From a virus (Duplodnaviria > Caudoviricetes): a stretch of DNA of 58,530 nucleotides. The DNA lies in the IMG/VR virus record IMGVR_UViG_3300015050_000977, positions 1 through 58,530 of that record; one strand, written 5' to 3'. The translations under genes were made by a program, and so were the position numbers. The notes under the pieces were generated by a model, which worked only from the letters and a program-made list of their open reading frames with translations, had not been told where the DNA came from and did no database searches. This document shows, in pieces, positions 1 through 58,530 of this stretch (position 1 is the first letter of the stretch; each line of letters starts with the position of its first letter).

Positions 1-123
1 CTTCAATGCTCGACTTCATCGAGGCAAACGAAGCGTGGATTACATACGCCAGCGACCACGCCAAAACGGACAGGGCGTGGCGATGCCAAGTCGCCGAGCG
101 GCGATTCCCGTCGCCGGACATTC
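1..123. repeat. Terminal direct repeat (circular assembly overlap), copy 1
   Basis: Bases 1-123 are identical to 58408-58530, and an ORF reads in frame through the join. Confidence 0.95.
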
Positions 124-254
124 GTGAGCGAAGCGGGCGCCAAGGATACGGCAAGACCGCACGCAAGGCTATCGCCGAGGCAATGCGCGCGACGACAGTT
201 CCTTTCTTTGCGAACATTCCGAATCACCAACGCGCCGAGAGCGCAGAAGGGTAA
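1..254 (+). CDS. Cassette protein, 3' part; full ORF starts at ATG 58320 and crosses the origin (113 aa, MKTKLKKTPK...MLDFIEANEAW...)
   Basis: 58320-58407 plus 1-254 is 342 nt with an open frame; it starts in the loop of attC 58268-58399 and stops in the loop of attC 209-402. Confidence 0.75.
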   Translation, partial: SMLDFIEANEAWITYASDHAKTDRAWRCQVAERRFPSPDIRERSGRQGYGKTARKAIAEAMRATTVPFFANIPNHQRAESAEG

Positions 255-402
255 AAATGAAAAACCGAAAGAAAATCGAACTTGAAGAGACAGCGGGCGA
301 AAGAGAAATGCGTCTGAGCTGGAAAGCCGACGCGTGGAACGGACGCAGCACTCCCGAAAGCGCGGCTCAGTCCGGCGCGTTGGGTGTGGTCGGTTGTTCG
401 AG
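209..402 (-). repeat. attC-like site (cores TGCGAAC...GTTCGAG)
   Basis: Imperfect inverted repeat CAACGCGCCG/CGGCGCGTTG flanked by AAC and GTT cores. Confidence 0.85.
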
Positions 403-655
403 TCAGGCACCGAGCGCAATCAATCCAATAGACGAATGCGTGCGCCTCGGCACCCAACTGGCCCACCTCCGAAGCGCGCTAGAGGAGATTCAGAGAAGCG
501 CCGATGGCTCTCTAAACAACGACTTCCCCGAAGATGCTCCCGACACCCTGCAACACATCTCTGGAATCGTCGCTCGTGCTCTGGGCTCTGCGACTGAGCG
601 CCAGCCTGACTCGAACGATCCCGATCAGCCACGCGCAGAACGTAAAATCTTATGA
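257..655 (+). CDS. Cassette hypothetical protein (132 aa)
   Basis: ATG lies in the attC loop 2 nt after the upstream stop; its stop overlaps the next start (ATGA). Confidence 0.7.
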   Translation: MKNRKKIELEETAGEREMRLSWKADAWNGRSTPESAAQSGALGVVGCSSQAPSAINPIDECVRLGTQLAHLRSALEEIQRSADGSLNNDFPEDAPDTLQHISGIVARALGSATERQPDSNDPDQPRAERKIL

Positions 656-796
656 TCGAAGACATCGAACATTCGCCGCTCCCCGAGCGTAAAATCATGC
701 GGGCGATACTCGTCCCCGCCGATGGGTCGAGCGCAGAAGCCACATCGGAACCGCAGGCCCACTGTGCGCGTTGCTGCTGTGGCGGGTTGGTTCGGC
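610..796 (-). repeat. attC-like site (CTCGAAC...GTTCGGC)
   Basis: Arms GATCCCGATCAGCCACGCGCA / TGCGCGTTGCTGCTGTGGCGGGTTG. Confidence 0.85.
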
Positions 797-984
797 TCCG
801 CAGCCTCGGCCTCGTCTGCGTGGCTCAGTCGGGCATGGCTCTCGTCATGGCCGCTCTCGGCATCGTAGATCGCTGGACGGTCTATCCCGCCTGCTACTTC
901 TCTCTCACCACATTCGTCGGCGTGTGGCTCATGCGAGATAAGCCGAACGATGCACATCAGCCAACTCGGAGGCCCGACGCGTGA
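652..984 (+). CDS. Cassette hypothetical membrane protein (110 aa, about 2 hydrophobic segments)
   Basis: ATGA-coupled start; hydrophobic stretches in the C-terminal half. Confidence 0.65.
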   Translation: MIEDIEHSPLPERKIMRAILVPADGSSAEATSEPQAHCARCCCGGLVRLRSLGLVCVAQSGMALVMAALGIVDRWTVYPACYFSLTTFVGVWLMRDKPNDAHQPTRRPDA

Positions 985-1049
985 ACACCACTGATCGAAG
1001 CGACCGCTCAGGAGCATCGCCCGAGTTGGCTGTGGGTGCCGGGTTCGGC
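942..1049 (-). repeat. attC-like site (GCCGAAC...GTTCGGC)
   Basis: Perfect inner stem CAGCCAACTCGG/CCGAGTTGGCTG. Confidence 0.9.
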
Positions 1050-1337
1050 AAGGGTGAAATCTCCGCGCCGCTGCCGCTAGAATCATCGGAGACAAGGTCG
1101 GCGAACCACGTAAAAAGCGTGATGGAACAACTGAACCGGGCGCAGGCATTCGCGGGGAGTCCAAAAGCGCGGAAACTATACCGCGACGCCTATGAGATAA
1201 TTAAGGCGGCTCAAATCTCCGGCGGTTTTGTCTTTCCGAAGTCCCATGATTGCCGATTTCACCGAGACCTAACGAACAAGTGCGGGGTTTGCGGATCTTT
1301 TCCGCCGAACGAAAAAGCTCAGACACGCTCGCCATGA
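981..1337 (+). CDS. Cassette hypothetical protein (118 aa, C-terminal Cys/His cluster HDC...CGVC)
   Basis: GTGA-coupled start in the attC loop. Confidence 0.7.
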   Translation: MNTTDRSDRSGASPELAVGAGFGKGEISAPLPLESSETRSANHVKSVMEQLNRAQAFAGSPKARKLYRDAYEIIKAAQISGGFVFPKSHDCRFHRDLTNKCGVCGSFPPNEKAQTRSP

Positions 1338-1419
1338 ATCACCCTCTGCAACCGCTCGTAGGCAAGACGCCCGAACAACCTGCCGCTGGCGAGCGTTGTT
1401 CTGTGGCGCTGGGTTCGGC
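1304..1419 (-). repeat. attC-like site (GCCGAAC...GTTCGGC)
   Basis: Minus strand reads GCCGAAC-CCAGC-GCCACAGA...TCTGAGC-TTTTTC-GTTCGGC, the canonical R''-5-L''(8)...L'(7)-6-R' spacing. Confidence 0.9.
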
Positions 1420-1684
1420 GTGGGCCGCGCTCTGGACGAGCAAGAACAAACTCGACGGCCTAAAGAGACATCTCATCTACGAGAACGGAGTGCCCGCGCT
1501 TTTCTCGAAGCGCCGCTTCGCCCGAAATTTCATCCGCGCTCAATACGGCTACATCGCGACGCGCGCCGATCTTCGCGCTGAACCGCATGGCTGGCGGCTA
1601 CCCGTAGCGGTCAAAGTCACGGTTACTCTTTCTTCGCCGAACCATATAATATCACATCCCCATGAGAATTCACGGCAACCTTGA
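1334..1684 (+). CDS. Cassette hypothetical protein (116 aa, MNHPLQP...)
   Basis: ATG at 1334 overlaps the upstream TGA; preferred over the track start at 1250. Confidence 0.75.
   Translation: MNHPLQPLVGKTPEQPAAGERCSVALGSAWAALWTSKNKLDGLKRHLIYENGVPALFSKRRFARNFIRAQYGYIATRADLRAEPHGWRLPVAVKVTVTLSSPNHIISHPHENSRQP
1636..1660 (-). other. attI-like simple recombination site (half-site with no partner arm)
   Basis: Minus strand reads GGGATGTGATAT-TATATG-GTTCGGC. It is AT-rich, its core matches the previous site, and I found no complementary arm downstream. Confidence 0.6.
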
Positions 1685-1979
1685 CCGAGCAATATCCAAT
1701 CTGCGTGCCGGTCGCGAAGTATCCCGCCAATGTCGCCGCGCCTTCCTCGGCCCACCGCTCCGCGCTCCAGATGCCGGGACTTTGCTCAAAACCATCCGCG
1801 TCACAGACCACGTAAAAAATATCAGCTACGCCATCACAATTCACCAAGGCAACCGCCGCAATGGCATTGAACCACGCCTGTTCGGACAATCGTTCGTCAA
1901 ATCGCGCTACTGCGGTTTTGATCTGCTGTTTCGCGAACTGCGCAAACGGTGGTCATTGCGGTGGCTGGTCCTAAACTAA
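1662..1979 (+). CDS. Hypothetical basic protein (105 aa)
   Basis: ORF directly after the array, co-directional with the operon. Confidence 0.65.
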   Translation: MRIHGNLDRAISNLRAGREVSRQCRRAFLGPPLRAPDAGTLLKTIRVTDHVKNISYAITIHQGNRRNGIEPRLFGQSFVKSRYCGFDLLFRELRKRWSLRWLVLN

Positions 1980-2096: not shown

Positions 2097-2342
2097 ATGA
2101 CCAAACCACCCATCACCGCCGCCGAACTAGACCCCGCATGGCCCGAAGCCGTGCGCTCCGCCACGCCCGCCGTCAAACTGCGCGCTGGCCACGGCCACAC
2201 GATTGAGGCGTGGTCCGAGGCGCGCAACAGGTATATGCCGCTCCAACTGCCCGGTGGCGGCATCGCGTTCACCACCGAGGCGGATCGCGACCTGGTGCTG
2301 GGGGCGATTATGGGGCTCAATATATTGCCTCCCGCTAAGTGA
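2097..2342 (+). CDS. Hypothetical protein (81 aa)
   Basis: ORF coupled (GTGA) to the helicase. Confidence 0.65.
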   Translation: MTKPPITAAELDPAWPEAVRSATPAVKLRAGHGHTIEAWSEARNRYMPLQLPGGGIAFTTEADRDLVLGAIMGLNILPPAK

Positions 2343-4072
2343 GCGCCCTCATCGACATTGACTGGGATGAGGCGCCCGTAGCGGTAGCAACGCCCCATCG
2401 CTTTGCGCTGCGCGGTAAACAGCCACAGTGGCTCGCAACGATCATCTCTGATTTTGCGACCAAATCGCGCCTACTTGTGGTAGCCCCAGGAGGCGTGGGC
2501 AAAACGACCCTCTTCGCCGCGCTCGCAGCCCACTACCACACGCTCGGCATCCGCACGCTGGTCTTGGAGAACCGCGACCGGCTCACGCGCCAGACTGCCG
2601 ACCGTATCCGCATTGAGACCGGCATCGAGGTGGACATTGAAATGGGCGACGAGCACGCCAGTCCGTTCGCGCCCATCGTGGTTGCTAGCGTGCAGACGCT
2701 GGGGCGTGTCAACCGCTTGACCGGCTTTTCGGATTCTCACTTTGGATTGATCGTCGCGGACGAATGCCACTTTTCGCTAGGGCCGCAATTCCAACGCGTC
2801 ATGTGCTATTTCCACTACGGCGCCCACAGCCTAGACCCGGACTGGAAGCGGCCCGAAGATGGCACCTACGAGGTCAAGGCTCGCTGCGCCGGATTCACAG
2901 CCACGCCAGACATCGGCGAGCGCAAGAACCTCGGTCAGTTCTTCCATCACCGCAGCGTCAATTACAGCTACCTAGAAGCCGTGCAGGACGGCTGGCTGGT
3001 CGGCCCGGTTCAGAAGAACATCCCGGTTCGCATCGACCTGTCCAAATACAAGGCCAAGTCCACACCCAACGGAAACGACTTCGCCGCGTCCGATTTGAGC
3101 GCGGCGCTCATCCCGATCATCGAGGAACTGGCCGAGCAAATCCTGATCCATGCCTCGGCCAAGAAGACCATCGCATTTCTGCCTAGCGTGGAGTGTGCCC
3201 GCATGATGACCGACGCTCTGTTGCGGCGCGGGATGCGAGCGATATTCGTGTCCGGCGAGTGTCTTGATGCGTCTGAGAAGACGGACGAGTTCGCCGCGCT
3301 CGGAGCAGGCTCGGTGTTGGTCAATTGCTGCCTCTACGTCTACGGCGTGGATTTCCCTGACGTGGACTGCATCGCGTGGTTCCGCGCTACCATTTCCAAG
3401 GCGTTCTACATCCAAGGAATCTACCGCGGCACTCGCGTATTACCCGGCATCCTGAATGGCCTAAAAACCGCAGAGGGACGTCGCGATGCCATCGCCTGCT
3501 CGCGCAAACCGTTCCTGACAATCCTTGACCCGCTGTTCGTGTCTGACCGCATTGACCTGCTAGATGCCTACGACCTGCTCACCGATGAGCCCGAGGTGAA
3601 GAAGGCCATGAAGGCGTCGGGTGAACTGAGCGTGGAGTCGGCGCAGAAGGCGGAGCGCGATTTTCTGAAGTCGCTAAAGAAGGAGGCGAAGAAGCATGAG
3701 CGGAAAGCGGCCCGCACGATTGACCCGCTCCAGTGGGCGGTATCGCTTGGCGACTCCATGATCAAGTCCTATGCGCCAACCGAGGCGTGGGAATCGCAGC
3801 CGGCGAGCGTCGGTCAACTAGACTTCATCCGCAATCAGGGCATGGAGATTGGCGGGATCACGTCGAAAGGACTGGCCTCGCGTATCATCAGCCGGCTGCG
3901 CGTGCGACAGGACAATAAATTGGCAACGCCTAAACAACTACGCCTCATGCACCAACTCGGCCTAGACGAGCAGACCTGCGCTACGCTGACCCAAGCCGAG
4001 GCCACCGCCACCATCGACCGCATCTTGCAGGGCAAGCGGGAGCGGGGTGGGCTGACGCCGGCCGTGGCGTAG
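2339..4072 (+). CDS. Superfamily 2 (DExH) DNA helicase
   Basis: Walker A PGGVGKT, DECH, FTAT, GVDFP and YIQGIYRGTR motifs. Confidence 0.92.
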   Translation: MSALIDIDWDEAPVAVATPHRFALRGKQPQWLATIISDFATKSRLLVVAPGGVGKTTLFAALAAHYHTLGIRTLVLENRDRLTRQTADRIRIETGIEVDIEMGDEHASPFAPIVVASVQTLGRVNRLTGFSDSHFGLIVADECHFSLGPQFQRVMCYFHYGAHSLDPDWKRPEDGTYEVKARCAGFTATPDIGERKNLGQFFHHRSVNYSYLEAVQDGWLVGPVQKNIPVRIDLSKYKAKSTPNGNDFAASDLSAALIPIIEELAEQILIHASAKKTIAFLPSVECARMMTDALLRRGMRAIFVSGECLDASEKTDEFAALGAGSVLVNCCLYVYGVDFPDVDCIAWFRATISKAFYIQGIYRGTRVLPGILNGLKTAEGRRDAIACSRKPFLTILDPLFVSDRIDLLDAYDLLTDEPEVKKAMKASGELSVESAQKAERDFLKSLKKEAKKHERKAARTIDPLQWAVSLGDSMIKSYAPTEAWESQPASVGQLDFIRNQGMEIGGITSKGLASRIISRLRVRQDNKLATPKQLRLMHQLGLDEQTCATLTQAEATATIDRILQGKRERGGLTPAVA

Positions 4073-5239: not shown

Positions 5240-8200
5240 TTCTTGTCGCGGCCGATCTCATTCATTATTCGCGCGTCTTGCAAGAGCAGGTAGGCGCGCT
5301 GCGGGGGTAGTTCGGCCAACCCTGCCGCAATGTCGTCACCGTTGCGGTTCAGCGCGTTCAGATAGCCGTCGTCCAGCAGCGCGGCGGAGGCTAGGTTGAA
5401 TCGCTTAGTGCGGATCATATTGATGCCTTGGCGCATCAGGCTTCCAAGCGAGCGGCCGGACTGGATGCTGCCAGATTGCCCGGTGCGCACGAACTCGGCA
5501 GCATTGACAACCTCGGGTGTCATCTTGGCCGAAATCATGGCCTCGCGGCTGGCGTCGTCCATCTTAGCCACGCCCATCGCAAACTTGCGCAACCTTTCAG
5601 CCTTTTCCGGGCCGATAGCAGCGGAGAGCTGGCTGAATCGGGTGTCCGTATCAGCGCCTGGAAGCGACTCAAAGAACGACCTTACTTTTGGCGTATCCAG
5701 ATTTACGATTTGACCCGGAACATTGCGCTCCGTGCGAATCATGCCCTGAAGTGCATTTGCAACCAACCGGCGCTCAACCATCTCAGCCAAGTCTGGCTTC
5801 TGGTCACGCAGCGCGTCCATGAACGAACGCGCCTCGGAGCGGCGCATGTTGGCTACGAGGTCCGTGACCGTGCCGGCGCCGTCGATCTTTTCGGCCTCGT
5901 TAGACAGCCGGTAGCCTCCCTTGCCTTTGAATACGCCCGTGAGCGGATTTTGCTCCGCCGCCTGCATTGCGGCCTGCGCAGCCTGAGCGTCAACGCCTGC
6001 GCGCTTGGCGAGCCCGTTGGCCTCCACGAAAGCCTCGCGAGCCTTTTGCATCAGCCCGGCCTCGCGCAGCGCCACGGCGTCATTGACGCGTTTCGTGAAC
6101 GCGACAGTGGCCATCGCTTTTGCAACCTGCGCAGGGGCGTCTTTTCCGCCCACGTTGAGCACCTGTTGAATCTGTGGCGACTCCATCACGGAGCGGATAG
6201 CGTCCGGCATCAGATCGTGCGGCTTGAACTCTTGCAGCGCCTTCGTCCAGCCCTTGATCGTGGGTGCGTCACCCATGCGGAACAGTTCGACCGGGAATGG
6301 GCTGTCTTTCTTGGCGGCGTAGCGCCCGACCAATTCACCCAGCTTGCGGTAGTCCACGCCGTAAGCATCGGTCGCTTTTTCGAGGAACGAATTGCGGACG
6401 GCGCTGCCCATGGTGGCCATGGCGGCATTCGCCACGTCCGGGTTCATCGGCTTGATCTGGTCAACGAAGGCTTTGAAGTTTTTGATTTCGTCCACATTGC
6501 CGGACGCCAACTTGTCAGCCATGCCTGCAACGGTGGAGTCGGCCACTTCGCCGCGTAGCAGCGCCCGGCCAAAGTCGGAGTCGCGCAGCTTGGACGTGTC
6601 TCTCCAGAACTGACGGAACTTCTGATACGGTTCCACCGCGTCGGGGAACAGGCGCCCGATTTCTTCAACGTGCGTGTCGGACATCGCGTGATACGTCTTG
6701 GCTGCAAGACGCTCCGCGTTGTTCATGTTGTTCGTGTCGATCTTGCCTTGGAAGCCATCGCTGATGGCGTCGCGCAGACGGCGGAAGTCATCGAGGGTTA
6801 GGAACTTTTCCTCCGGCGCGGCGACGGCCGATGCGGATTGCATAGGCTGGCCTGCTACAAGCTTACCGCCAACCGTTTTTATGCCCCCGGGGAACGCGGC
6901 ATTAAATTGAGCCGGGGTCATTTCGGTTCCGGCTAATTGCGCCTTGCGCGCCATCTGCTCCAGCGAAAGCTGCTTGGTCGCTGTTGCGTCGGCGACAGTT
7001 TTGCTTCCCCAATTCTTGATCGTCTCAAGGATGGACTTGCCTGCCACAAGCTCCGCGTCCGAGCCTAGCGCGGCCTTTGCGGCGTTGTAGAGCGCGTCCT
7101 GCCCGATGATAGCGGCATTGTCAGGAATGCCCGTAGCAGCCAGCATTTCGCCTGCCGCCTGCGACCGCGCGCCGAACAGCTTTTTGGTAATGTCCTGCAC
7201 AGCCTCCGCGTGCCCAGTCTGCGTGCCAATGGTGTCGGCGCCAACGGTCAGTGCAATACTGGCCTTGGCTTGGTCGGAGATGGCCCGCATGGTCTCGGCC
7301 TGCGCACCAGCAATAACATCGGCGCGCGTCTTAGGGTCGAGATTGGTCGCCGCCTTGGCTTTGGTCACCATCGCCTGCGCTTCCTCCATGCGCTGTGCCG
7401 CCATTTTATAGGCAGCATCAAGTTCATCCACCTTGCCAAGAATCGGCTGCAACTGCGCCGCAATCTGCTCGTTCTGCGGAGCATCGGTCGCCGTCGCAAA
7501 AATAGCCTTGGCCATCGGCGCACGAGCCGCGTCCTGTTTTGCGCGCATGGTCGGATCAATACTGACCACCTTCTGCTGCATCGCGCCGTAACGCTTCGGA
7601 AGCACGTCGCCCAGCATCGGGTCAGCCATGCCCAGTTCTTCCGCTGCCCGACGGCCCGCGTCGGCCTCAGCCTGGACCTTCTGCATGGATTGCAGCTTGC
7701 CGCCCACGCCGAGCGCGGCGGAACCAATGATCGCCGGAACGATGGCGTCCTTGAGCGAGGTTTTGTATTCGTCCCAATTGGGCGTAAGTGACTGCTCCTC
7801 GATGGATCGCTCCAGCGCATTGCCGACCGCAACGGTGGCACCGGCCGCGCCCGCGCCCTTGGCGATGTTGCCGACCGTCGATGCGCCGGGAAGCGGATTC
7901 GGCGCGCCCGAAAAGAACATCGTCTGCGCGAGCTTCGACAGCTTCGGCGTCTCGCCGTTGTTCACCGCATCCAAAAGATACGCGCCGCCGCCGACCATCG
8001 CGCGGGTCGCCATCGGGATTGCTCCAAAGCCAGGGACGGCCATCGGTGACGCGGCCATGCCGACGCGCCCCATCGTGACCATTTGCTTGTCGAGGCGATT
8101 AGCCATCTCGTCGGGCGTCCCAAATGGGCTCTTGAAAGCGGGTGGCGCATCTGAGCGCTGAACACTGGCAAGTGATGCGGAAGGGTCATGCGCGGGAGCC

Positions 8201-8316
8201 GCCGTGGTCTGCGCCCGCATCTCGCGAATGGCGTCAGCCAATGCCTGCGCTGATGCCGTGTCGCCCGCGGCGTCAGCCTGCGCAAGTGAGTCTTCCAGTT
8301 GTGCGATGGTGGGCAT
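5236..8316 (-). CDS. Large internal virion / DNA ejection protein (1026 aa)
   Basis: Ala-rich helical protein in the last structural-gene position typical of podoviral ejection proteins. Confidence 0.65.
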   Translation of the reverse strand: MPTIAQLEDSLAQADAAGDTASAQALADAIREMRAQTTAAPAHDPSASLASVQRSDAPPAFKSPFGTPDEMANRLDKQMVTMGRVGMAASPMAVPGFGAIPMATRAMVGGGAYLLDAVNNGETPKLSKLAQTMFFSGAPNPLPGASTVGNIAKGAGAAGATVAVGNALERSIEEQSLTPNWDEYKTSLKDAIVPAIIGSAALGVGGKLQSMQKVQAEADAGRRAAEELGMADPMLGDVLPKRYGAMQQKVVSIDPTMRAKQDAARAPMAKAIFATATDAPQNEQIAAQLQPILGKVDELDAAYKMAAQRMEEAQAMVTKAKAATNLDPKTRADVIAGAQAETMRAISDQAKASIALTVGADTIGTQTGHAEAVQDITKKLFGARSQAAGEMLAATGIPDNAAIIGQDALYNAAKAALGSDAELVAGKSILETIKNWGSKTVADATATKQLSLEQMARKAQLAGTEMTPAQFNAAFPGGIKTVGGKLVAGQPMQSASAVAAPEEKFLTLDDFRRLRDAISDGFQGKIDTNNMNNAERLAAKTYHAMSDTHVEEIGRLFPDAVEPYQKFRQFWRDTSKLRDSDFGRALLRGEVADSTVAGMADKLASGNVDEIKNFKAFVDQIKPMNPDVANAAMATMGSAVRNSFLEKATDAYGVDYRKLGELVGRYAAKKDSPFPVELFRMGDAPTIKGWTKALQEFKPHDLMPDAIRSVMESPQIQQVLNVGGKDAPAQVAKAMATVAFTKRVNDAVALREAGLMQKAREAFVEANGLAKRAGVDAQAAQAAMQAAEQNPLTGVFKGKGGYRLSNEAEKIDGAGTVTDLVANMRRSEARSFMDALRDQKPDLAEMVERRLVANALQGMIRTERNVPGQIVNLDTPKVRSFFESLPGADTDTRFSQLSAAIGPEKAERLRKFAMGVAKMDDASREAMISAKMTPEVVNAAEFVRTGQSGSIQSGRSLGSLMRQGINMIRTKRFNLASAALLDDGYLNALNRNGDDIAAGLAELPPQRAYLLLQDARIMNEIGRDKK

Positions 8317-8334
8317 GGTGCGTGATTGGCGCGA

Positions 8335-9762
8335 TTAGCGCGGACCGGAGCCTTGGCGTGGAGGATACTTATTTAGGATGGCGTCGAGCGACGACGTGGC
8401 CGGCGCAGCCTTTGGCGCCACCACAGGCGCCGCTGAGGCATTCGGCGTCCAACTGACATATTCAGGCGGAATCACCTCATCCGGGTCCAGCCCGCGCTTA
8501 TCGGCGATGGCCTTATACTGCTTCGCGTCGCGCATCATATTTTCGTGATGGCGCTTACTTGCGTCATCCAGCGTTTTCAAGAAGTCGGCGCGCATCTTTA
8601 GCGAAAGGGTTTCACCCGACGCAGCCTGATTATATTGCTGCCAGATGCGCTCAGGAATCGAGCCCGTGTTCTTGGCGTCCGCACGCTCACCTTCGCGCAC
8701 CGTGGAGCGCGGATCGTAAGCCTTCATCACCGAGTAGACGAACGCCATGTCGTCGGCCGGCGTGCCGCGAGCCGCGAGGTCTCTGGCCAGATTGTAGGCC
8801 GTCGAAACGATGGCGAAGTTCTTGGCCGAATCCTTGGCGCCAAACTCGTCGCGCAGCTTCTTGGTCTCGTCAAAGACCTGCGCCGAGTCCTTCTTGCCGG
8901 TCTTGAGCGCATCGGCCTCGGCTTTGGCTGCTGCGGCCTCGGCTTTGGCTGTTCCAACCTGCTGACCCATCTCGTTGCGCAAGCCCTGCACCTCAAGCCG
9001 CGACTGCGCCGCAAGCGCTGCACGTTCAGCCGCGCCAGCCCGCGTGCTGTCGGCCTGTTGAAGTGCGACCATCTGAGCGGGCGTCATGCGCACGCCTTGC
9101 GAGGCCAATTGACCGGCGCCAGTCTCCAAGAACCTGCGCGCAGCATCGGACACTTCCGGCCGCACCACGCCGCCACCGTTGAGATTGCCGCTGCGCCCCG
9201 CCAGCGAGTCCGCCCCGCCAAGAGCCATCGGACCATCTGGCGCGCGGCCAAACAGCGCGGATGGACCGCCCGTGGCCGCGGGCTGCATCGGTGTGCCAGC
9301 ATTAAGCCGCTGACCAAGCGCCGCCATCTGCTGCATCTTGGCGTTTGTGGCATCCTCCTCCGTCTGCTGACGCTGCGCCTGTGCCAATTGGAACTGCGCC
9401 TGTTGCATCTGCATCGCCCGCATCTCCGCCATCTGCTTGTCCTCCTTCGCCTTCGTGTAGGTGTCCGCAAACGTGCTCAAAAGCGCCGCGTCCCGCACGC
9501 CCACGGTGCCGTCCCTCTGGAGCTTCATAAACGCCTTCACCGCGTCGGAGGGCGCGTTCGGCGACGGCTCCTCGGGGTTGAGGAATTGCAGCAGATCAGG
9601 GTTGGCCTTCAGTGCTCCCTCAAACTTGCCGAGGGCCTGTGCGGCCATCGTCTTGTTCTGGGCATAGCTTTGCATCCCCTGCTGGATTGAGTTTCCGAGG
9701 TTGCTGATGCCTTGGGCGATGTATTCGCCGCTGCGGTCTTGGATTCCAGGTGAGTAGGCCAT
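8335..9762 (-). CDS. Internal virion / ejection protein (start MAYSPGIQ at 9762)
   Basis: Gln/Ala-rich helical protein; position in the module; ACTACCATG start context. Confidence 0.6.
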   Translation of the reverse strand: MAYSPGIQDRSGEYIAQGISNLGNSIQQGMQSYAQNKTMAAQALGKFEGALKANPDLLQFLNPEEPSPNAPSDAVKAFMKLQRDGTVGVRDAALLSTFADTYTKAKEDKQMAEMRAMQMQQAQFQLAQAQRQQTEEDATNAKMQQMAALGQRLNAGTPMQPAATGGPSALFGRAPDGPMALGGADSLAGRSGNLNGGGVVRPEVSDAARRFLETGAGQLASQGVRMTPAQMVALQQADSTRAGAAERAALAAQSRLEVQGLRNEMGQQVGTAKAEAAAAKAEADALKTGKKDSAQVFDETKKLRDEFGAKDSAKNFAIVSTAYNLARDLAARGTPADDMAFVYSVMKAYDPRSTVREGERADAKNTGSIPERIWQQYNQAASGETLSLKMRADFLKTLDDASKRHHENMMRDAKQYKAIADKRGLDPDEVIPPEYVSWTPNASAAPVVAPKAAPATSSLDAILNKYPPRQGSGPR

Positions 9763-20983: not shown

Positions 20984-20987
20984 GGAA

Positions 20988-35742: not shown

Positions 35743-35769
35743 GAGCGCCACCGTCCGGCAACTATTTTT

Positions 35770-35782
35770 CTCGTCAAGCGAG
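35770..35782 (-). promoter_or_regulatory. 13-bp motif CTCGCTTGACGAG, copy 3
   Basis: Exact copy; TTGACG lies 35 nt before the HTH gene ATG. Confidence 0.7.
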
Positions 35783-35832
35783 ATTTTGCTTGCGGCAGAG
35801 AAATAATCGGAACACGCATGGGCCATCAGCCA

Positions 35833-48333: not shown

Positions 48334-48515
48334 AAACTGAAAACATCACCAAGGCGGCGCGCAGCATCGGCTTAGCCGTCAGCGAACTGCGGGCCGCGCT
48401 TAACGACGCCAACCGCGCCAATAACCAATTTGCTTGGCTCGTGCTGGAGCAGGCGCTTGGCGAGGCTGTGGTATTGCAGACAAAGATTATGCGCATCGAG
48501 GAGGCGGCAACATGA
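48330..48515 (+). CDS. Hypothetical protein
   Basis: Coupled ORF. Confidence 0.55.
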   Translation: MKTENITKAARSIGLAVSELRAALNDANRANNQFAWLVLEQALGEAVVLQTKIMRIEEAAT

Positions 48516-48947
48516 ATGTCCATTTTTCATCCGCCTCCGACGAGTGGGCCACGCCGCCCGACTTCTTCGCCAAGTGCGCCGAGGAGTTCGGTTCGTTTGA
48601 CTTGGACGTATGCGCATCTGCCGAAAACCACAAGGCGCCGCGCTTTTTCACCAAAGAGCACGACGGCCTTACGCAAGACTGGCGAGGGCGCGTCTGGATG
48701 AATCCGCCCTATGGTCGCACGATTGCGACATGGATGCGCAAAGCCTACGAGTCGGCACAGGCGGGTGCGCTCGTGGTCTGCCTCGTGCCGTCTCGCACAG
48801 ACACATCATGGTGGCACGACTACGCAGCCAAGGGCGAAGTGCGCTTCATTCGCGGGCGCCTTAAATTCGGGGGGGCATCACAACTCGGCACCGTTCCCGA
48901 GCGCACTCGTCATCTTTCACCCGCAAATCATGGAGGTTGAATCATGA
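48512..48947 (+). CDS. Phage N6-adenine DNA methyltransferase (Dam-like), frameshifted at a G7 run
   Basis: WATP, DLDVCAS, NPPY and PSRTDT motifs; the conserved NSAPFPS tail lies in another frame after 48869-48875. Confidence 0.85.
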
Positions 48948-53781: not shown

Positions 53782-55005
53782 ATGATCCCCACGATCCGCG
53801 CATCATCGCTCGATAGGGTGCTCTCCTGCCCCGGCTCACTCACCGTCAATGCCATCGTCGCACCCCGCGACGGTGACGACGGCGAAGAAGGCACGGCGCT
53901 ACACCACCTGTCAGCCGCCCGCATCAAAGCCGAGATGGGCGCCATTGGCGAAATCGGTCCGCAGCCTCCGGGCCAATATCCTCACTCAACCTGGATTAGT
54001 GACTACTACGTGCGCCACGTCATGGAGTCTACCCCAGCCAGTTACAGCCTAGAGTGTGAGGCGGCGCTGGCCTACTTCTTTGAACCCGAAGAACCGCGCG
54101 TTATCACGCAGGTCATGTGGGAGGACGGTCGCCCCGTGCTGCGCCAGGTGCCTTACAACGGCTTCATCCTCTCCGGCCACATTGACTGCCTCGCCCTGTC
54201 ACCGGACGCCACACACGCCATCGGCTGGGACTTGAAGACCGGCTACGACCCCGTGGACTGCGCCGATAGCAACTGGCAAATCCTCGGTTACTGCGTGCTG
54301 CTGAAGCGGGCCTACCCCACGTTGCAGTCGGTCACGTTCTACATCGTGCAGCCGCGTAACGATGAGGACGGCGACGCCGTAAACGAAGGCCATCCGCGCG
54401 TATCCTGCGTCACGATCACCGACCTTGACGCCGCGGTTGCCACGCTAGCAGTCCGCATTGCCGACGCCATTTCAAGGCCCCTCGAACTCAACACCACCAT
54501 CAAAGGCTGCAAATTCTGCGTGGGCTGCTCGTGCCCCGCGATTCGCGCCAAACAAAAACTTATGAGACTAACCATGACAGAGGAATCGCTGGCCTCGCTT
54601 AAGGCCCAGCCGGACGACGCCACGCTGGCGGAGTTCATTATCGGTGCCAAGGAACTGGCCAAGCCAACCGAGGACGCCAAGGCTATGCTGAACGACCGGC
54701 TGGATCGTAACCCGCAACTGGTGGCCGCAGACGGCACCGTGATCACGCGGGTGACTCAACGAGGCGCATGGAGCGTAAACGACCCGCAGGCGTTCTTCCG
54801 CGCCATGCGCGAACTGCTTCCGGCCGACGAACAGATTGCCCGCGTCACGAAGCCGAGCATGACGGCACTCAAGGATGAGATTGCCACGAGCATGAAGGTG
54901 CCGAAGACGAGCAAGGCAGGTGTCAGCGCCGCCAGCATTTTCGACAGCACGTTTGCGCCGCTGGCCACGCAAGGGGAACGGAAAATGATTCAATTTTCGC
55001 AATGA
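53782..55005 (+). CDS. PD-(D/E)XK exonuclease (Cas4/DUF2800-like)
   Basis: CPGS, EGTALH, GHID, DLKTG, QILGY and CKFC motifs. Confidence 0.85.
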   Translation: MIPTIRASSLDRVLSCPGSLTVNAIVAPRDGDDGEEGTALHHLSAARIKAEMGAIGEIGPQPPGQYPHSTWISDYYVRHVMESTPASYSLECEAALAYFFEPEEPRVITQVMWEDGRPVLRQVPYNGFILSGHIDCLALSPDATHAIGWDLKTGYDPVDCADSNWQILGYCVLLKRAYPTLQSVTFYIVQPRNDEDGDAVNEGHPRVSCVTITDLDAAVATLAVRIADAISRPLELNTTIKGCKFCVGCSCPAIRAKQKLMRLTMTEESLASLKAQPDDATLAEFIIGAKELAKPTEDAKAMLNDRLDRNPQLVAADGTVITRVTQRGAWSVNDPQAFFRAMRELLPADEQIARVTKPSMTALKDEIATSMKVPKTSKAGVSAASIFDSTFAPLATQGERKMIQFSQ

Positions 55006-55164
55006 CCAACCACCAACTCCTCACCATCGTTATCGTCGCAATTTGGCTGTGCTCAACGATTGGCGCGTGCGTCACAAAGCGCGCTGAAATATACCAAGCT
55101 CCGGCCATCCTCACTGTGCTCATATGCATCGGCTACTTTTTAATCAAAACAAGAGGCTAATCCC

Positions 55165-55635
55165 ATGCCCCGCTACACCACCGAGAGAGAATTGGCCATC
55201 GCACGCCGTAGCATGGGCGAGCCCAACGTCGTGATCCCGCCCGCGCCAAAGAAGCGCAAGAACGAGGAAAGCGCCGCCCAGTGCGAAGTCATCAAGTGGT
55301 GGGCGACTGCGTGCAAGGCTTATGACATTCCTGAAATTCTGCTGTTCAGCATCCCGAACGGAGGCCGGCGCGATCCACTGGCCATGATTTTTCTCAAACG
55401 AGAGGGGCTGCGCAATGGCGTTCCCGATTTGTTTCTGAGCGTCCCGCGCGGACACTGGCATGGTCTTTACGTCGAAATGAAGACAGCGACGGGACGCGTC
55501 AGGGATGAGCAGCATGAATTTATTGAGTCTGCGCGCGTGAATAACTACGTCGCATTTGTGTGCCGCAGCGCAGAGGACGCGAAGGCCATTATTGAACGGT
55601 ATCTAACTAATCCAAGCCAACTGCATTCGGCCTAA
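55165..55635 (+). CDS. VRR-NUC domain nuclease
   Basis: IPNGG, GVPDL and YVEMK motifs. Confidence 0.9.
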   Translation: MPRYTTERELAIARRSMGEPNVVIPPAPKKRKNEESAAQCEVIKWWATACKAYDIPEILLFSIPNGGRRDPLAMIFLKREGLRNGVPDLFLSVPRGHWHGLYVEMKTATGRVRDEQHEFIESARVNNYVAFVCRSAEDAKAIIERYLTNPSQLHSA

Positions 55636-55729
55636 CATCAAGACCCGACAACCCAGCCCCGAATACTACGGCGGTCACTTCAAGCCCTGCCAAATCTGCG
55701 GGGATAGCGGCTGGATAGAGGCTCAACCT

Positions 55730-56089
55730 ATGAACCCGAAAAAGACCGAAACGCTCACCCTCGCCGACGCAATGGATGCGCTCGCACGCGACATCCAATC
55801 TGGCGACGGGATCGCCAACGCAGCTATCGCGGAAGCGGCCGACCGCCTGCGCGAAACGCTAAAGGAAAACAATCGCCTCGACGGACTAATGGCGCAGCGT
55901 GACGAGCGAATCGTTGCGCTCCTACAAGAAGTGGACGAGCGCCGCCGCGACGCACAGAAAGACGCGGCGCTCGTGGGGCGGCTTCGCCGGGCGCTGGCAG
56001 ATGCGATAACCACCTACGACCCGACGCGGAAAGAGACTCTCGTGACTGCCGAGCGGCAAGAAGCGTGGGCCGCGGCATTGGCGTCATGA
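55730..56089 (+). CDS. Hypothetical coiled-coil protein
   Basis: Last fixed gene before the array. Confidence 0.7.
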   Translation: MNPKKTETLTLADAMDALARDIQSGDGIANAAIAEAADRLRETLKENNRLDGLMAQRDERIVALLQEVDERRRDAQKDAALVGRLRRALADAITTYDPTRKETLVTAERQEAWAAALAS

Positions 56090-56133
56090 CTTCGCCCAAC
56101 ATACCGGTGAGCAACACCGACACGAACACCTAA
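56086..56133 (+). CDS. Leader mini-ORF MTSPNIPVSNTDTNT crossing the first crossover
   Basis: ATG overlaps the upstream TGA; reads the core AAC as Asn, like every cassette gene. Confidence 0.5.
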   Translation: MTSPNIPVSNTDTNT

Positions 56134-56223
56134 AAACTTTACGACCATGACAAAACATAATCCTACTCAAAACATCCGCCGAAGCCTGAAGCTGTCGGTG
56201 TTGGCTCTAGTGGCTGGTTCGGC
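56094..56223 (-). repeat. attC-like site (GCCCAAC...GTTCGGC)
   Basis: Stem CAACACCGACA/TGTCGGTGTTG. Confidence 0.85.
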
Positions 56224-56431
56224 TCCGTTCTTGCTGTGCTCAAGCTACCGCACGAAGGCCGGCCAGTGGGTCCGCATCGTCGATGAATCCACGCTCAAAG
56301 GCTACGAATGCGTGAAGGGCGACGACGGAATCTGGCGCTACAACCGCGAGAGCGACCGAGGACGAGTGACCGGCTCAGCCTTCGACATGAGCGACCCCAG
56401 AAATCTTCTGCCGAACGCCCGAGGTGACTGA
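56147..56431 (+). CDS. Cassette hypothetical protein (94 aa)
   Basis: Starts in the attC loop; contains YRTKAG..VRIV...GRVTG. Confidence 0.7.
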   Translation: MTKHNPTQNIRRSLKLSVLALVAGSAPFLLCSSYRTKAGQWVRIVDESTLKGYECVKGDDGIWRYNRESDRGRVTGSAFDMSDPRNLLPNARGD

Positions 56432-56604
56432 CCAACGCCCCGCGAGCGCAGATCAACCCAACCAACTCTAGCCATGCTCTCCGATACTCTCGCAAAAGGA
56501 ATCGCTCAACCGCCGGACGTGCGGACCAAAGACGGTGCGCGCGTAGATGGCACTCACGAACAACAGCCCCGTGCAGGGGCGTTGGGTCTAGCGACTGGTT
56601 CTCC
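56410..56604 (-). repeat. attC-like site (GCCGAAC...GTTCTCC)
   Basis: Stem ACCAACGCCCC/GGGGCGTTGGGT; TGAC duplication in the left arm. Confidence 0.8.
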
Positions 56605-56612
56605 CTCTTTTT

Positions 56613-56858
56613 ATGACGATCAAACAACTCAAGGCGACAATCGCCAACATGCCCGACGAATGGCCGGTATACTTCCGGCGGATCGCGCCGCTCTGCGGCA
56701 ACGTGGAAGAAGCCGGAACGATCAACGCCGACAAATACAGCTCTTTTGGGACGCTCTATCCATGCGCCATCATCGAACCCGTGAAGGACGATGAGGAGAA
56801 CACCCACGCTGAGACAGGACCACGGCAGGACGCGGCACCGAAACGCCCTATCGCGTGA
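56613..56858 (+). CDS. Cassette hypothetical protein (81 aa, MTIKQLK...MPD)
   Basis: Typical phage MT.xxL...LPD start; stops in the next attC loop. Confidence 0.7.
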   Translation: MTIKQLKATIANMPDEWPVYFRRIAPLCGNVEEAGTINADKYSSFGTLYPCAIIEPVKDDEENTHAETGPRQDAAPKRPIA

Positions 56859-56892
56859 AGCCGTGGGCCTTGTCTCTGGCAAATGGTTAGGC
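56795..56892 (-). repeat. attC-like site (GGAGAAC...GTTAGGC)
   Basis: Arms GAGACAGGACCACGGC / GCCGTGGGCCTTGTCTC. Confidence 0.85.
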
Positions 56893-56902
56893 TCTTCTTA
56901 AA

Positions 56903-57142
56903 ATGCAAAATATACCTTACGACGACTGGCGCTCCAAAGCCGCCCGCGAAATTGCAGACGCTCTCCGCGAAGAAAACCAGCGCGTGGCCTACTATGCGTC
57001 TGGGCAGGGCGACGGCTGGGCGCGCTCCTACGGTGCAGGCAACTTCAGGAGCCCCGACTACGCCTCGATAATCGACCGGCACTATCAGGCTTCGCTCGCC
57101 AAGCCTAACGCGGAGATGAGGGACGAGCCCGAACGTAAATAA
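56903..57142 (+). CDS. Cassette hypothetical protein (79 aa)
   Basis: Ends KPNAEMRDEPERK inside the next attC. Confidence 0.65.
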   Translation: MQNIPYDDWRSKAAREIADALREENQRVAYYASGQGDGWARSYGAGNFRSPDYASIIDRHYQASLAKPNAEMRDEPERK

Positions 57143-57290
57143 ACAACATGGATACACCCACAAAAGACCTCGCCGCTGCTCAAGTGCGCGGCCACGACAC
57201 CGGCCCCGTTGGCGCTCATGCGTCGAGCGCACTCCCTCCGTCCGAATCGCAGGGCCAGTCGGCTCGTTCCTCTCGGGCGACTGGTTCTCT
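57103..57290 (-). repeat. attC-like site (GCCTAAC...GTTCTCT)
   Basis: Arms GAGGGACGAGCC / GGCTCGTTCCTC. Confidence 0.8.
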
Positions 57291-57447
57291 TCCGGGGTGG
57301 GCCGTCGATACTCTAGCGGAAAGCTGGCACGTCTCCGCAATCTTCGACGGAAATAAACACGTCCGCGCGACACTCGACCGATGCCTCAAAGAACTGCGAG
57401 CGGCGCAGGCCCGTGCGAATAAGCGCCAGCCTGAAGAGAACGACTGA
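57148..57447 (+). CDS. Cassette hypothetical protein (99 aa)
   Basis: Starts in the attC loop. Confidence 0.65.
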   Translation: MDTPTKDLAAAQVRGHDTGPVGAHASSALPPSESQGQSARSSRATGSLPGWAVDTLAESWHVSAIFDGNKHVRATLDRCLKELRAAQARANKRQPEEND

Positions 57448-57628
57448 GATGTGCCACGAGCCCGCTGAACGGAGAAAAACAATATGCAAATCAGAACGAA
57501 ACTTGGACTAGTAGATATACCGAACGAAGTCATCATGGCTGCCGCGCGGGACATAGCGGGGAGCGCAGACAGCACTCCCGAAATCGCGGCCCCATCGGGC
57601 TCGTTGTGCACTGGCGATTTGGTTCACC
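57435..57628 (-). repeat. attC-like site (AGAGAAC...GTTCACC)
   Basis: Arms GTGCCACGAGCCCG / CGGGCTCGTTGTGCAC. Confidence 0.85.
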
Positions 57629-58005
57629 GTCTGGGGGAAATCGCTGCCGCTGCGCCATTCGGTGATGCGGAATGGAATCGGACGCTCCAAGACGCGACAA
57701 TGGCGCTGCGCGAAATAGAGGAGGGCGCGAGCGACATGCACGAAGCACACGACAATCTCGCGCTCCTGCTGCGTCGCGCGGCGCGCAAGATAGACCCGCG
57801 CGACCCGCTGCGGACTGAGTGCGTGGCCTACCTCAAGCGCATCGGGCAGGCGGGAAATCCACTGCGCGGCGTGACTGCCGCACAAGATGCGGAGCCGCTC
57901 CCGGCTTCAGACCTCACCGACATGCGCGAAGCCGGAGTTTTATCTTCGGTGAACGTCCCTGATGAGCCGACGCGCGGAGCGTCGGACAAACTGAATACAA
58001 AATGA
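57484..58005 (+). CDS. Cassette hypothetical helical protein (173 aa)
   Basis: Starts in the attC loop; ATGA-coupled to the next gene. Confidence 0.7.
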   Translation: MQIRTKLGLVDIPNEVIMAAARDIAGSADSTPEIAAPSGSLCTGDLVHRLGEIAAAAPFGDAEWNRTLQDATMALREIEEGASDMHEAHDNLALLLRRAARKIDPRDPLRTECVAYLKRIGQAGNPLRGVTAAQDAEPLPASDLTDMREAGVLSSVNVPDEPTRGASDKLNTK

Positions 58006-58080
58006 AAAAGACACGAGCGGAGAAGGCACTCCCGAAAAACAGCCCCCGTAAGCGCGTTGGCTCTGGCAGGCTGGTTCGGC
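57948..58080 (-). repeat. attC-like site (GGTGAAC...GTTCGGC)
   Basis: Stem GAGCCGACGCGC / GCGCGTTGGCTC. Confidence 0.88.
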
Positions 58081-58310
58081 CTCTGGGGCTCTGGGCGGTG
58101 ATAATCTACACGCCCCAGACAGAGTGGATAAACCACTGGACGATAGCACGAACACGCACCGAAGCGCGTAAGCTATACTTTTCGCTTTGGACTGAGGCAA
58201 AACACCCCAAGAGGCACATTCGCAACGGCAGCGCCGCCCTTGTTCGGGTGACGCTTTCTTTGGCCGGGCCGAACCGGCGCATATCAGCCGCGCCCGTCGA
58301 ACTCCTCTAA
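58002..58310 (+). CDS. Cassette hypothetical basic protein (102 aa)
   Basis: Starts in one attC loop and stops in the next. Confidence 0.7.
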   Translation: MKKTRAEKALPKNSPRKRVGSGRLVRPLGLWAVIIYTPQTEWINHWTIARTRTEARKLYFSLWTEAKHPKRHIRNGSAALVRVTLSLAGPNRRISAAPVELL

Positions 58311-58399
58311 ATCCTCTCCATGAAAACCAAACTCAAGAAAACCCCGAAACGTAAGCCAGCCGGACAGACAAGGGCGTTGGCTGTGGATGCTGGTTCGCA
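58268..58399 (-). repeat. attC-like site (GCCGAAC...GTTCGCA)
   Basis: Arms CAGCCGCGCCC / GGGCGTTGGCTG. Confidence 0.8.
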
Positions 58400-58530
58400 A
58401 TCCGATTCTTCAATGCTCGACTTCATCGAGGCAAACGAAGCGTGGATTACATACGCCAGCGACCACGCCAAAACGGACAGGGCGTGGCGATGCCAAGTCG
58501 CCGAGCGGCGATTCCCGTCGCCGGACATTC
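58320..58530 (+). CDS. 5' part of the origin-spanning cassette gene
   Basis: ATG at 58320 is in frame with ORF 6..254. Confidence 0.75.
   Translation, partial: MKTKLKKTPKRKPAGQTRALAVDAGSQSDSSMLDFIEANEAWITYASDHAKTDRAWRCQVAERRFPSPDI
58408..58530. repeat. Terminal direct repeat, copy 2
   Basis: Identical to bases 1-123. Confidence 0.95.

Follow-up and report, generated by a model that had tools for sequence, protein, structure and literature searches.

The question raised by this locus is whether a row of repeats and small genes in a phage genome is a set of integron cassettes bounded by attC recombination sites and, if so, how such sites could be recombined in a phage without a recognizable integrase. 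The locus lies in the virus record IMGVR_UViG_3300015050_000977, and the window analyzed was the whole record, 58,530 nucleotides (nt) in length. An earlier note on this DNA had described the genome as circularly complete, had seen no open reading frame (ORF) with tyrosine- or serine-recombinase motifs, and had proposed that the array probably depends on an integron integrase (IntI) of the host and may exchange cassettes. Our main conclusion, to which we assign a probability of about 0.75, is that this complete tailed phage carries a cluster of attC sites lacking an integrase (CALIN), with eleven cassettes and attC sites of an Opitutaceae type, and that the array is reshuffled by IntI supplied in trans by the host or by a co-resident phage.

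The array extends from 56094 across the record ends to 1642 (3,956 bp, 6.8% of the genome). It consists of 11 attC sites and one half-site, all on the + strand, which delimit 11 cassettes of 283–513 bp with one small gene each (Table 1). A repeat model located 11 + strand copies of an element of about 70 nt, within the stretch that runs from 56170 through the record ends to 1421; nhmmer agreed, and the model found no copy outside the array in the genome at E ≤ 1. Because the repeat was read in different frames among the small ORFs, we consider it an element of the DNA. The full sites attC4, attC5, attC8, and attC9 were delimited from their boxes, by eye and with a sequence-only model. Start codons of the cassette genes lie within the attC loop or 9–14 nt past the site, and four of the cassette ORFs have start–stop overlaps of the form ATGA or GTGA. 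Deletion of the whole array rejoined the sequence as ...GCCCAA|CCATATAAT..., restoring an uninterrupted junction; the array therefore occupies one GTT-containing site between ORF 55730-56089 and ORF 1662-1979, and the 5' box of attC1 has the letters of that original phage target site. Two further features of the array were observed. In cassette 1, the conserved 3' arm of attC1 codes for the hydrophobic core (…LSVLALVAGSAPFLLC…; 56147-56240) of a lipoprotein-like signal peptide, and other cassettes read the same DNA in other frames. A perfect TATAAT hexamer directly follows the terminal half-site (GCCGAAC CATATAATATC, 1643-1660), just upstream of ORF 1662-1979.

The identity of the repeats was examined with R2, a structured covariance model built from 37 of 49 delimited chromosomal attC sites and no phage site. 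With filters off, R2 gave full-length + strand matches at 7 of the 11 sites in the window, with E-values between 1.6e-7 and 0.03; the E-value of the window's next best match was 0.045. GTT was present in all 11 of the 3' boxes, and AAC in 10 of the 11 5' boxes and in the half-site. The most common box was GCCGAAC/GTTCGGC, which keeps in part the purine/pyrimidine pattern of the core boxes given for the bottom strand (5'-RYYYAAC-3' in R' and 5'-GTTRRRY-3' in R''; PMC5027507). Eight of the sites were 93–133 nt long, the range given in the same source being 57–141 bp. In unconstrained minimum free energy (MFE) folds, 9 of the 11 full sites had arm-to-arm pairing, with a mean z of −1.7; the poor ones were attC2 and attC8. 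The consensus and the matches in the window had a bulged T in CGT(T)GGCTC in the 3' arm of the + strand, except for attC10, which had none; one clear bulge per site was present here vs. the usual 2–3. For covariation, 42 viral attC sites, 5 of them from the window, were aligned. All eight L-box pairs varied on both sides, and 97.6% of the cells were paired, in an alignment fitted to the model and thus biased in favor of pairing. The covariation score was 0.321 vs. 0.107 for shuffled alignments (none of 500 reached it) and at most 0.048 for slid ones. The L box of attC4 also showed compensatory changes.

A second kind of evidence came from the cassette boundaries. The reverse complement of a 3' box equaled the 5' box of the next site at 10 of the 11 junctions for the outer four letters and at 9 of 11 for all seven, and the matching boxes included five distinct ones (GGAG, GCCT, AGAG, GGTG, and CTCG). 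It equaled the 5' box of its own site in only 2 of 11 cases. This complementarity, the trace that a circular cassette cut at G|TT would leave, was equaled by 2 of 200,000 permutations. Among other phages, 15 of 29 successive pairs of detected sites showed the boundary match vs. 4 of 29 for the own box. Within a site, the outer R-box letters pair poorly, as expected of letters that are part of the neighboring cassette. From the sequence, the folds, and the boundaries, we conclude that the repeats in the window are genuine attC sites, and that the locus, with 11 of them in a row and no intI gene anywhere in the complete record, is to be classed as a CALIN. The combination that defines a complete integron, intI and attI beside the array, was absent from the window and present in the related record G002. 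Shorter cuts of the element (70–86 nt) folded no better than shuffled sequences (z −0.57 to +1.47) and had no consensus structure, because they had been cut to the 3' arm and part of the loop; the full sites do fold. An Rfam scan at the gathering thresholds gave no matches.

The search for a recombinase covered all six frames of the whole record. Profile searches at E ≤ 10 gave no candidate for PF00589 Phage_integrase or TIGR02249 integron integrase (controls recovered in 14 of 14 known genomes for each), for PF00239 Resolvase (13 of 14), or for PF00665 rve (11 of 14). Of the 153 ORFs of at least 104 aa, 150 were scanned against Pfam, and no integrase, resolvase, or transposase family was detected at E ≤ 0.01; the three ORFs outside that scan were 3010-3321 (−), 5396-5710 (+), and 8142-8453 (+). 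A PHROG scan of the 95 called proteins detected no integrase, excisionase, or transposase, and a protein atlas look-up of two unannotated early proteins gave no recombinase lead. The absence of a recombinase in this phage is thereby confirmed at the level of sequence profiles, as the earlier note had judged by eye, and the finding that it named as contrary evidence, a phage ORF that proves to be a recombinase, did not emerge from the profile, Pfam, and PHROG searches. Its claim of a circularly complete genome also held: 123 nt are identical at both record ends (1-123 = 58408-58530), leaving a unique unit of 58,407 nt, and in the record's classification the virus has direct terminal repeats and a CheckV completeness of 100. 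Since the terminal repeat sits in the unique part of cassette 7 and not in an attC repeat, the closure is not a repeat artifact.

We then turned to bacterial chromosomes with sites of the same type. A scan of genome contigs with the core pattern found at least 139 matching stretches, and among the matches listed, 42 of the 63 distinct contigs were titled Verrucomicrobiota or Opitut*; contigs with two or more matches per locus were, among those listed, eight with an Opitut* title and two of one ‘Paceibacterota’ metagenome-assembled genome (MAG). The element forms long arrays in Opitutaceae-type contigs. In one Opitutaceae-titled genome (G007), an intI gene scored 347 bits vs. the curated cut-off of 265, and three copies of the element lay just upstream of it on the same strand. 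The cassette genes there were on the strand opposite to the sites, one of them SnoaL-like, and each was followed by a hairpin of textbook attC form, GCCTAAC-9 nt-GAGCCACG-long loop-CGTTGGCTC-9 nt-GTTAGGC. RNAalifold on an alignment of 37 chromosomal sites recovered the R and L stems with the bulged T. At five of seven IntI loci of the class of G007, R2 attC sites lay upstream of intI on the same strand; the other two had no upstream sequence. The architecture of the window sites is thus that of the chromosomal Opitutaceae-like integrons (the G007 array and six others), NCCNAAC-9 nt-GAGCCACG-loop-CGTTGGCTC-9 nt-GTTNGGC with a bulged T, and the polarity of the sites relative to intI is the same as in the IntI-bearing phages. 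The chromosomal sites differ in being more uniform, mostly 61 or 99 nt, whereas the phage loops are long and hold + strand start codons. The chromosomal cargo is typical of integrons (toxin–antitoxin, GNAT, glyoxalase, and SnoaL genes). The two contigs of the Candidatus Paceibacterota MAG (DASZTF010000128.1 and DASZTF010000135.1; L037-L041, L082-L084) were densely filled with Opitutaceae-type attC sites, mostly of the 99-nt form and more than 20 in 9 kb; the likely cause is an error in binning, the less likely alternative being a cassette array from an unexpected source.

An integron integrase above the curated cut-off was found in 49 of 151 sampled genomes of the class of G007 vs. 0 of 14 controls. 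Predicted hosts without IntI were a further observation that the earlier note had said would count against it; the clade that uses the same attC type instead has the gene in about this fraction of its sampled genomes. The capsid protein of the phage was not found in 301 genomes of the same class, a result uninformative on the host either way.

The same type of site was found in other viruses. The attC element is the sole DNA common to the window phage and the IMG/VR records G001-G004. A first DNA pattern, B1-N-CGTTGG, gave four viral matches, all by chance, and was abandoned. A scan with a wider pattern gave 21 more viral loci, with at least one R2 site in 17 and at least two in 14. With the window included, viral records that have this attC type number at least 22. 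An IntI-like gene was present in 8 of the 22, six over the curated cut-off and two at 212 bits; seven of these 8 are among the 17 records of the wider scan, 5 of the seven being over the cut-off. Eight records reach a completeness of at least 90%; IntI is encoded in three of these, a remnant is left in one, and the other four, the window among them, have neither. G002 encodes an intact IntI of 318 aa (313 bits, 39–46% identical to chromosomal IntI), and G001 has an N-terminal intI remnant beside its sites. G002 also shares the replication module of the window, co-linear at 40–47% identity, and there the VRR-NUC gene directly adjoins the helicase gene, with no intervening array. A half-site in G002, GCCTAAC (L022:12401-12445), forms the end of its array 35 nt ahead of the intI start codon; the G002 cassette genes point toward intI, and read-through from the array could drive it. 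Individual sites were also similar between phages with unrelated flanks: attC6 is 93.6% identical over 78 nt to an attC site of G003, and attC11 is 74% identical to one of G001. The G001 homolog of the cassette 7 protein was considered as a case of cassette transfer and rejected, since no recognizable attC site lies at its flanks.

The boundary signature is symmetric and silent on which strand recombines, and the polarity of the sites was assigned from other observations. An extrahelical base opposite the AAC triplet defines the bottom strand (PMC5027507). Because the + strand has its extra T on the arm that faces its AAC triplet, because the direction of the sites relative to intI is the same in chromosomal integrons and in IntI-bearing phages, and because units found elsewhere break at the AAC boxes, we conclude that the + strand of the window corresponds to the bottom, recombining strand of attC. 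The cassette genes were also placed on the + strand, by the single ORF per cassette, the start–stop overlaps, GC content by codon position, the PHROG match of cassette 1, and the G001 homolog of cassette 7.

For the wider comparison of gene strand, GC content at the third codon position (GC3) alone was too noisy, and ORFs with family hits were used instead. In seven chromosomal arrays, 13 of 14 ORFs with Pfam hits were on the top strand (126 ORFs scanned, 84 top and 42 bottom). At 16 viral loci, all 15 ORFs with family hits were on the bottom strand, about 10 of them between two sites (the first 150 of 222 ORFs scanned, 85 bottom and 65 top). The ratio of bottom to top was therefore 15:0 in viruses vs. 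1:13 in chromosomes (Fisher p 2e-7). Among the families hit at the viral loci were DNA methyltransferases, PAPS-reductase-like proteins, and small regulators.

Evidence that individual cassettes move came from sequencing runs. Of the words sampled from 55000-58530, 12–17% were present in each of 20 runs out of the 24 listed; these 20 runs derive from 11 studies. Logan contigs were analyzed for four runs, each of a different study (two wastewater, one unlabelled metagenome, and one riverine), in which uncovered parts of 55000-58530 carry no meaning. One contig of 778 nt contains 56799-57111 (cassette 3) with no differences and unlike sequence on both sides, and another of 747 nt contains 57439-57954 (cassette 5) with 11 differences. 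Cassette 5 was present in all four runs, with unlike flanks that begin at 57438 and 57954. The left break excludes the four letters of the neighbor and the right break includes the seven of the cassette itself, positions that are the exact prediction of an AA|C crossover. A metagenome contig of 1,161 nt (L184) carries three sites of the same type and a recombinant partial copy of cassette 5, 88% identical over 57726-57958, whose similarity stops at the boundary. The cassette 5 protein was not found in IMG/VR; one short metagenome contig was found. Two other joints and a loose end were not relied upon: 56888>57438, with only 31 letters on one side; 57954>58275 after 203 other letters, with a right side of 28 letters; and a loose end after 56100, which at 10 letters is too short. 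In two wastewater runs, summed contig depth within the stretch was by far the highest at the region of cassette 5 (57360-57950), which also had several variants; this hints that the cassette is widespread, contig depth being a poor measure.

Taken together, these results make the borrowing of IntI in trans the best reading of the array. Replication and recombination intermediates during infection would expose the + strand, and the single-stranded site would fold into a hairpin of R box, spacer, L box, and variable loop. IntI would then cleave the 5'-AAC-3' of the left-hand box at the step from A to C, releasing or inserting whole cassettes, and replication would resolve the junction and complete the exchange. 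As the phage encodes no such enzyme, reshuffling would need IntI in trans, from a chromosomal integron of the host or from a co-resident phage with its own IntI gene. The cassette genes, which lie on the same strand as the phage genes around them, would be expressed by read-through of the operon and not from an integron Pc promoter. The proposal that the array depends on a host IntI is supported in so far as the sites are genuine, the phage has no recognizable recombinase of its own, and IntI occurs in the candidate host clade; the donor, however, need not be the host and may be a phage, because 8 of the 22 viral records with the attC type, G002 among them, encode an IntI-like gene. The proposal of cassette exchange likewise stands in part: cassettes occur elsewhere with unlike flanks, but exchange with host integrons is unsupported by the genome search described below and by the opposite strand of the chromosomal cassette genes.

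Several observations weigh against this conclusion. R2 misses four of the eleven sites (attC4, attC5, attC8, and attC9), which have very long loops, and attC4, attC5, and attC9, at 187–194 nt, exceed the range of attC lengths given in PMC5027507. The unpaired spacer between R and L is 9 nt per arm vs. the 5–6 nt described there as usual. In attC2 the triplet is GAC and not AAC and the arms are unpaired in the fold, and attC8 has a poor L box. The host is assigned to Opitutaceae-like Verrucomicrobiota by the match of attC type, which is the one basis for that assignment. A search of 401 genomes of the candidate host class did not find the cassette 5 protein and gave no sign of exchange with host integrons. 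Finally, the Logan contigs are short, so that the other contexts cannot be assigned to phage or bacterium, and the differences between samples date the exchanges loosely.

The reversed gene strand points to a broader possibility, for which we consider the chances to be even. Phages of Opitutaceae-like hosts may maintain an integron system of their own, in which a pool of bottom-strand cassettes circulates among unrelated phages and members without IntI borrow it. The cassettes would carry accessory genes, such as those for DNA methyltransferases, PAPS-reductase-like enzymes, and small regulators; the phage operon would read through them, and in members with IntI transcription would continue into intI. 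This suggestion is based on the strand split between viral and chromosomal arrays, the common geometry of intI and attC, the 22 viral records, and the negative search for the cassette 5 protein in the 401 genomes.

Of the alternatives to an array that is reshuffled by borrowed IntI, the one with the most in its favor is a fossil array, put together by an earlier action of IntI in this lineage or in a donor and since inherited as ordinary phage DNA with decaying sites; any turnover would then be due to homologous recombination and not to IntI. The window sites scored 15–32 bits with R2 vs. 88–98 bits for chromosomal sites (the chromosomal values come from three sites, two of which R2 had been trained on). 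The four sites missed by R2 and the degenerate attC2 and attC8 would fit this reading, as would the extension of ORFs 9–58 nt past the cassette boundary into the next site. The three similarities confined to attC sites end at the conserved 3' arm, a possible place of homologous exchange, and the phage has genes for RecT and an exonuclease. We nevertheless consider a fossil unlikely, because boundary complementarity is intact at 10 of 11 junctions, because compensatory changes keep the L box paired, which argues for selection on the fold, and because cassettes 3 and 5 occur elsewhere at 98–100% identity with breaks at AA|C and not at the conserved arm. Decidedly less probable is a phage protein, of a fold that present families do not cover, that recombines the sites with no need for borrowing, a possibility already named in the earlier note. 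Most of the small early phage proteins match no family and would leave room for it. To our knowledge, however, attC recombination is carried out only by tyrosine recombinases of the IntI type; related viral records with the same sites have ordinary IntI genes beside their arrays, the look-up of two unannotated proteins gave no lead, and, among the window proteins, just one (an ORF of 161 aa) recurs in at least two of G001, G002, and G004.

It is also improbable, to a similar or slightly greater degree, that the repeats are primarily promoters, translational operators, or RNA elements that regulate the small early genes. The sites do lie at or just upstream of gene starts in the direction of the genes, and the spacing of GAAC-N16-19-CGTT is reminiscent of promoters of the extracytoplasmic function (ECF) type. 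That spacing varies from 16 to 22 nt, however, the same element is a canonical attC hairpin after genes, on the other strand, beside chromosomal intI, and regulation would not explain the boundary signature or the mobile units. A secondary regulatory role of the sites in the phage may exist. Hardly credible, lastly, is a chimeric assembly that joins a phage to part of a bacterial integron. Assembly can go astray at repeats, and this array runs across the record ends; but the terminal repeat lies in unique cassette sequence, replication genes co-linear with those of G002 lie on both sides of the array, GC content is even across the array junctions, and the orientation of the genes relative to attC is of the phage and not the chromosomal type.

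Table 1. Coordinates of attC sites, cassette genes, and selected phage genes in the window (aa, amino acids; R1 and R2, models; z, fold z score)
Feature	Position	Strand	Evidence
attC1, bottom strand on +: GCCCAAC ... GTTCGGC	56094..56223	+	R2 28.1 bits, E 3e-6; fold with arm–arm pairing
Cassette 1 ORF, 94 aa, starts within attC1 loop; lipoprotein-like N-terminus	56147..56431	+	phrog_9244 E 2e-5
attC2, degenerate 5' arm, GAC for AAC	56512..56604	+	R2 E 0.03; R1 45 bits; MFE fold without arm pairing
Cassette 2 ORF, 81 aa, start 9 nt past attC2	56613..56858	+	GC3 phase, translation
attC3: GGAGAAC ... GTTAGGC	56795..56892	+	R2 E 3.6e-6
Cassette 3 ORF, 79 aa	56903..57142	+	cassette 56799-57111 found with 0 differences in another context
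attC4, 188 nt: GCCTAAC GCGGAGAT GAGGGACG ... CGTTCCTC ... GTTCTCT	57103..57290	+	R1 33 bits; boxes; fold; R2 none
Cassette 4 ORF, 99 aa	57148..57447	+	ORF list, translation
attC5, 194 nt: AGAGAAC GACTGAGAT GTGCCACG ... CGTTGTGCAC ... GTTCACC	57435..57628	+	R1 47.6 bits; fold; boxes; R2 none
Cassette 5 ORF, 173 aa	57484..58005	+	cassette seen in four runs of four studies
attC6: GGTGAAC ... GTTCGGC	57948..58080	+	R2 E 8e-7
Cassette 6 ORF, 102 aa, start codon in attC6 loop	58002..58310	+	ORF list, translation
attC7: GCCGAAC ... GTTCGCA	58268..58399	+	R2 E 0.009
Cassette 7 ORF, crosses record end to 254; alternative start 58413 (= position 6)	58320..58530	+	53% identical to G001 ORF
attC8: ATCGAAC ... 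GTTCGAG; weak L box	275..402	+	R1 41.8 bits; R box alone pairs in fold; R2 none
Cassette 8 ORF, 132 aa; in-frame alternative start 308	257..655	+	ORF list, translation
attC9, 187 nt: CTCGAAC GATCCCGAT CAGCCACG ... GTTCGGC	610..796	+	R1 49.8 bits; family D1; fold; boxes; R2 none
Cassette 9 ORF, 110 aa	652..984	+	ORF list, translation
attC10: GCCGAAC GATGCACAT CAGCCAAC ... GTTGGCTG ... GTTCGGC	942..1049	+	R2 E 1e-6; fold z −3.2
Cassette 10 ORF, 118 aa	981..1337	+	ORF list, translation
attC11: GCCGAAC GAAAAAGCT CAGACACG ... CGTTGTTCTG ... GTTCGGC	1304..1419	+	R2 32.2 bits, E 1.6e-7
Cassette 11 ORF, 116 aa, start codon in attC11 loop	1334..1684	+	ORF, GC3, translation
Terminal half-site GCCGAAC, closes cassette 11, in place of attI, no intI beside it	1636..1642	+	box comparison
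Direct terminal repeat	1..123, copy at 58408-58530	.	end-to-end sequence identity
Flanking ORF, 119 aa; stop 5 nt ahead of first attC box	55730..56089	+	no homolog in G001-G004
Flanking ORF, 105 aa, no family	1662..1979	+	Pfam/PHROG scans without match; no homolog in G001-G004
VRR-NUC nuclease gene, last replication-module gene ahead of array	55165..55635	+	Pfam PF08774 E 8e-11
SF2 (superfamily 2) DNA helicase, first replication gene past array	2339..4072	+	Pfam ResIII/DEAD; 46% identical to G002 helicase
SU10-type major capsid protein	19976-21298	−	Pfam/PHROG scans
Large terminase with inserted LAGLIDADG-like segment	25690-28419	−	Pfam/PHROG scans

The remainder of the genome was characterized by Pfam and PHROG scans of the window proteins, which identified genes of a tailed phage. 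Besides the capsid protein and terminase listed in Table 1, a head–tail adaptor-like protein and a tail fiber are encoded. A replication and recombination module on the + strand comprises a DnaB-like helicase, an RNase T-type exonuclease, RecT, a DUF2800 exonuclease, the VRR-NUC nuclease, and the SF2 helicase. The suggestion that the two flanking ORFs might co-occur with arrays was not borne out, as homologs of them are absent from the four other phage records. Relatives of the helicase were not found within IMG/VR, and GenBank phages are distant relatives only (helicase about 31% identical, capsid 40% at best). A tRNA scan of the window found none.

Several other genes deserve mention. The terminase (909 aa) has a weak LAGLIDADG_3 match near residues 759–802 and a PHROG stretch labeled thymidylate synthase at 538–612, features suggestive of an intein or of the insertion of a homing-endonuclease domain; immediately upstream of the terminase gene is a gene for an HNH/NUMOD4 endonuclease (28423-28986, −). 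Three DNA methyltransferase genes are located outside the array on the + strand (30843-31535, FkbM-type; 37380-38459, C-5 cytosine; 48434-48937, Dam-like), and homologs of the C-5 cytosine and Dam-like genes sit within the cassette array of G002. The ORF of 161 aa at about 45941-46426 (+) has no Pfam or PHROG family and is the sole protein common to the window, G001, and G002; it is 47% identical to the G001/G002 proteins, retains the motifs RRIEM...ECG(D/N)G...DPRGC...YTRG, and is absent from G004. Two HTH_3 (Cro/CI-type) regulators with N-terminal extensions of about 90 aa (35443-35922, −; 47552-48064, +) are encoded in this genome without an integrase; the phage may be lytic, or temperate without integration.

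Integrons are known mainly as devices of bacteria for gene capture, and phage-borne pieces have been reported recently and rarely. The locus described here raises two questions that can be tested: whether phages trade accessory and anti-defense genes by site-specific cassette exchange in addition to homologous mosaicism, and whether a phage without the enzyme can take part in cassette exchange by borrowing IntI. If the reversed gene strand holds, it would mean a cassette pool adapted to phage transcription and would provide a simple sequence criterion for distinguishing phage from bacterial cassettes in metagenomes. For a clade of which few members have been cultured, the attC type would also help to predict which phages infect it.

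Structured repeats placed between small accessory genes have a precedent in phages. Promoter-early stem-loops (PeSL) flank small genes in the hyperplastic regions of T4-type phages, and a modular shuffling of genes has been proposed for them, thought to use homologous recombination between the regulatory repeats. The repeats of the window occupy a like position, but are attC sites with the signature of a site-specific crossover.

The insertion of cassettes by IntI at non-classical genomic sites (attG) has been described for bacterial genomes in a preprint (10.1101/2022.09.11.507474). The array in the window likewise sits in a single GTT site without attI or intI, and the junction restored by its removal would be the trace expected of insertion at a secondary site. 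Closest to the present case are the phage arrays of Qi, Rajabal, Ghaly, Tetu & Gillings 2023 (PMC9892861), whose survey of 10,705 NCBI phage genomes yielded 21 cases, namely 17 CALINs, all having two or more attC sites, 3 complete integrons, and 1 In0. The same authors demonstrated recombination of phage attC sites in trans by the bacterial IntI1. These CALINs are, as described there, arrays of attC sites and cassettes without intI in phage genomes, as is ours, and DNA methyltransferases occur among the cassettes both of those phages and of the related viral records found here. Both the occurrence of CALINs in phages and the action of a bacterial IntI on them in trans are thus already published; the kind of locus is known, and the idea of the earlier note agrees with the accepted view of arrays of this kind. 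A literature search at the level of titles and abstracts found no description of this attC type, of its recurrence among many viral records of a single host clade, or of the reversed gene strand. The present case differs in having 11 sites and a half-site in one uncultured phage and the same host-specific attC type in 22 IMG/VR records, 8 of them with an IntI-like gene. Two of the phage arrays in PMC9892861 are given with the orientation typical of bacteria, whereas the cassette genes of the window lie on the bottom strand of attC, opposite to chromosomal arrays, and this placement is apparently new.

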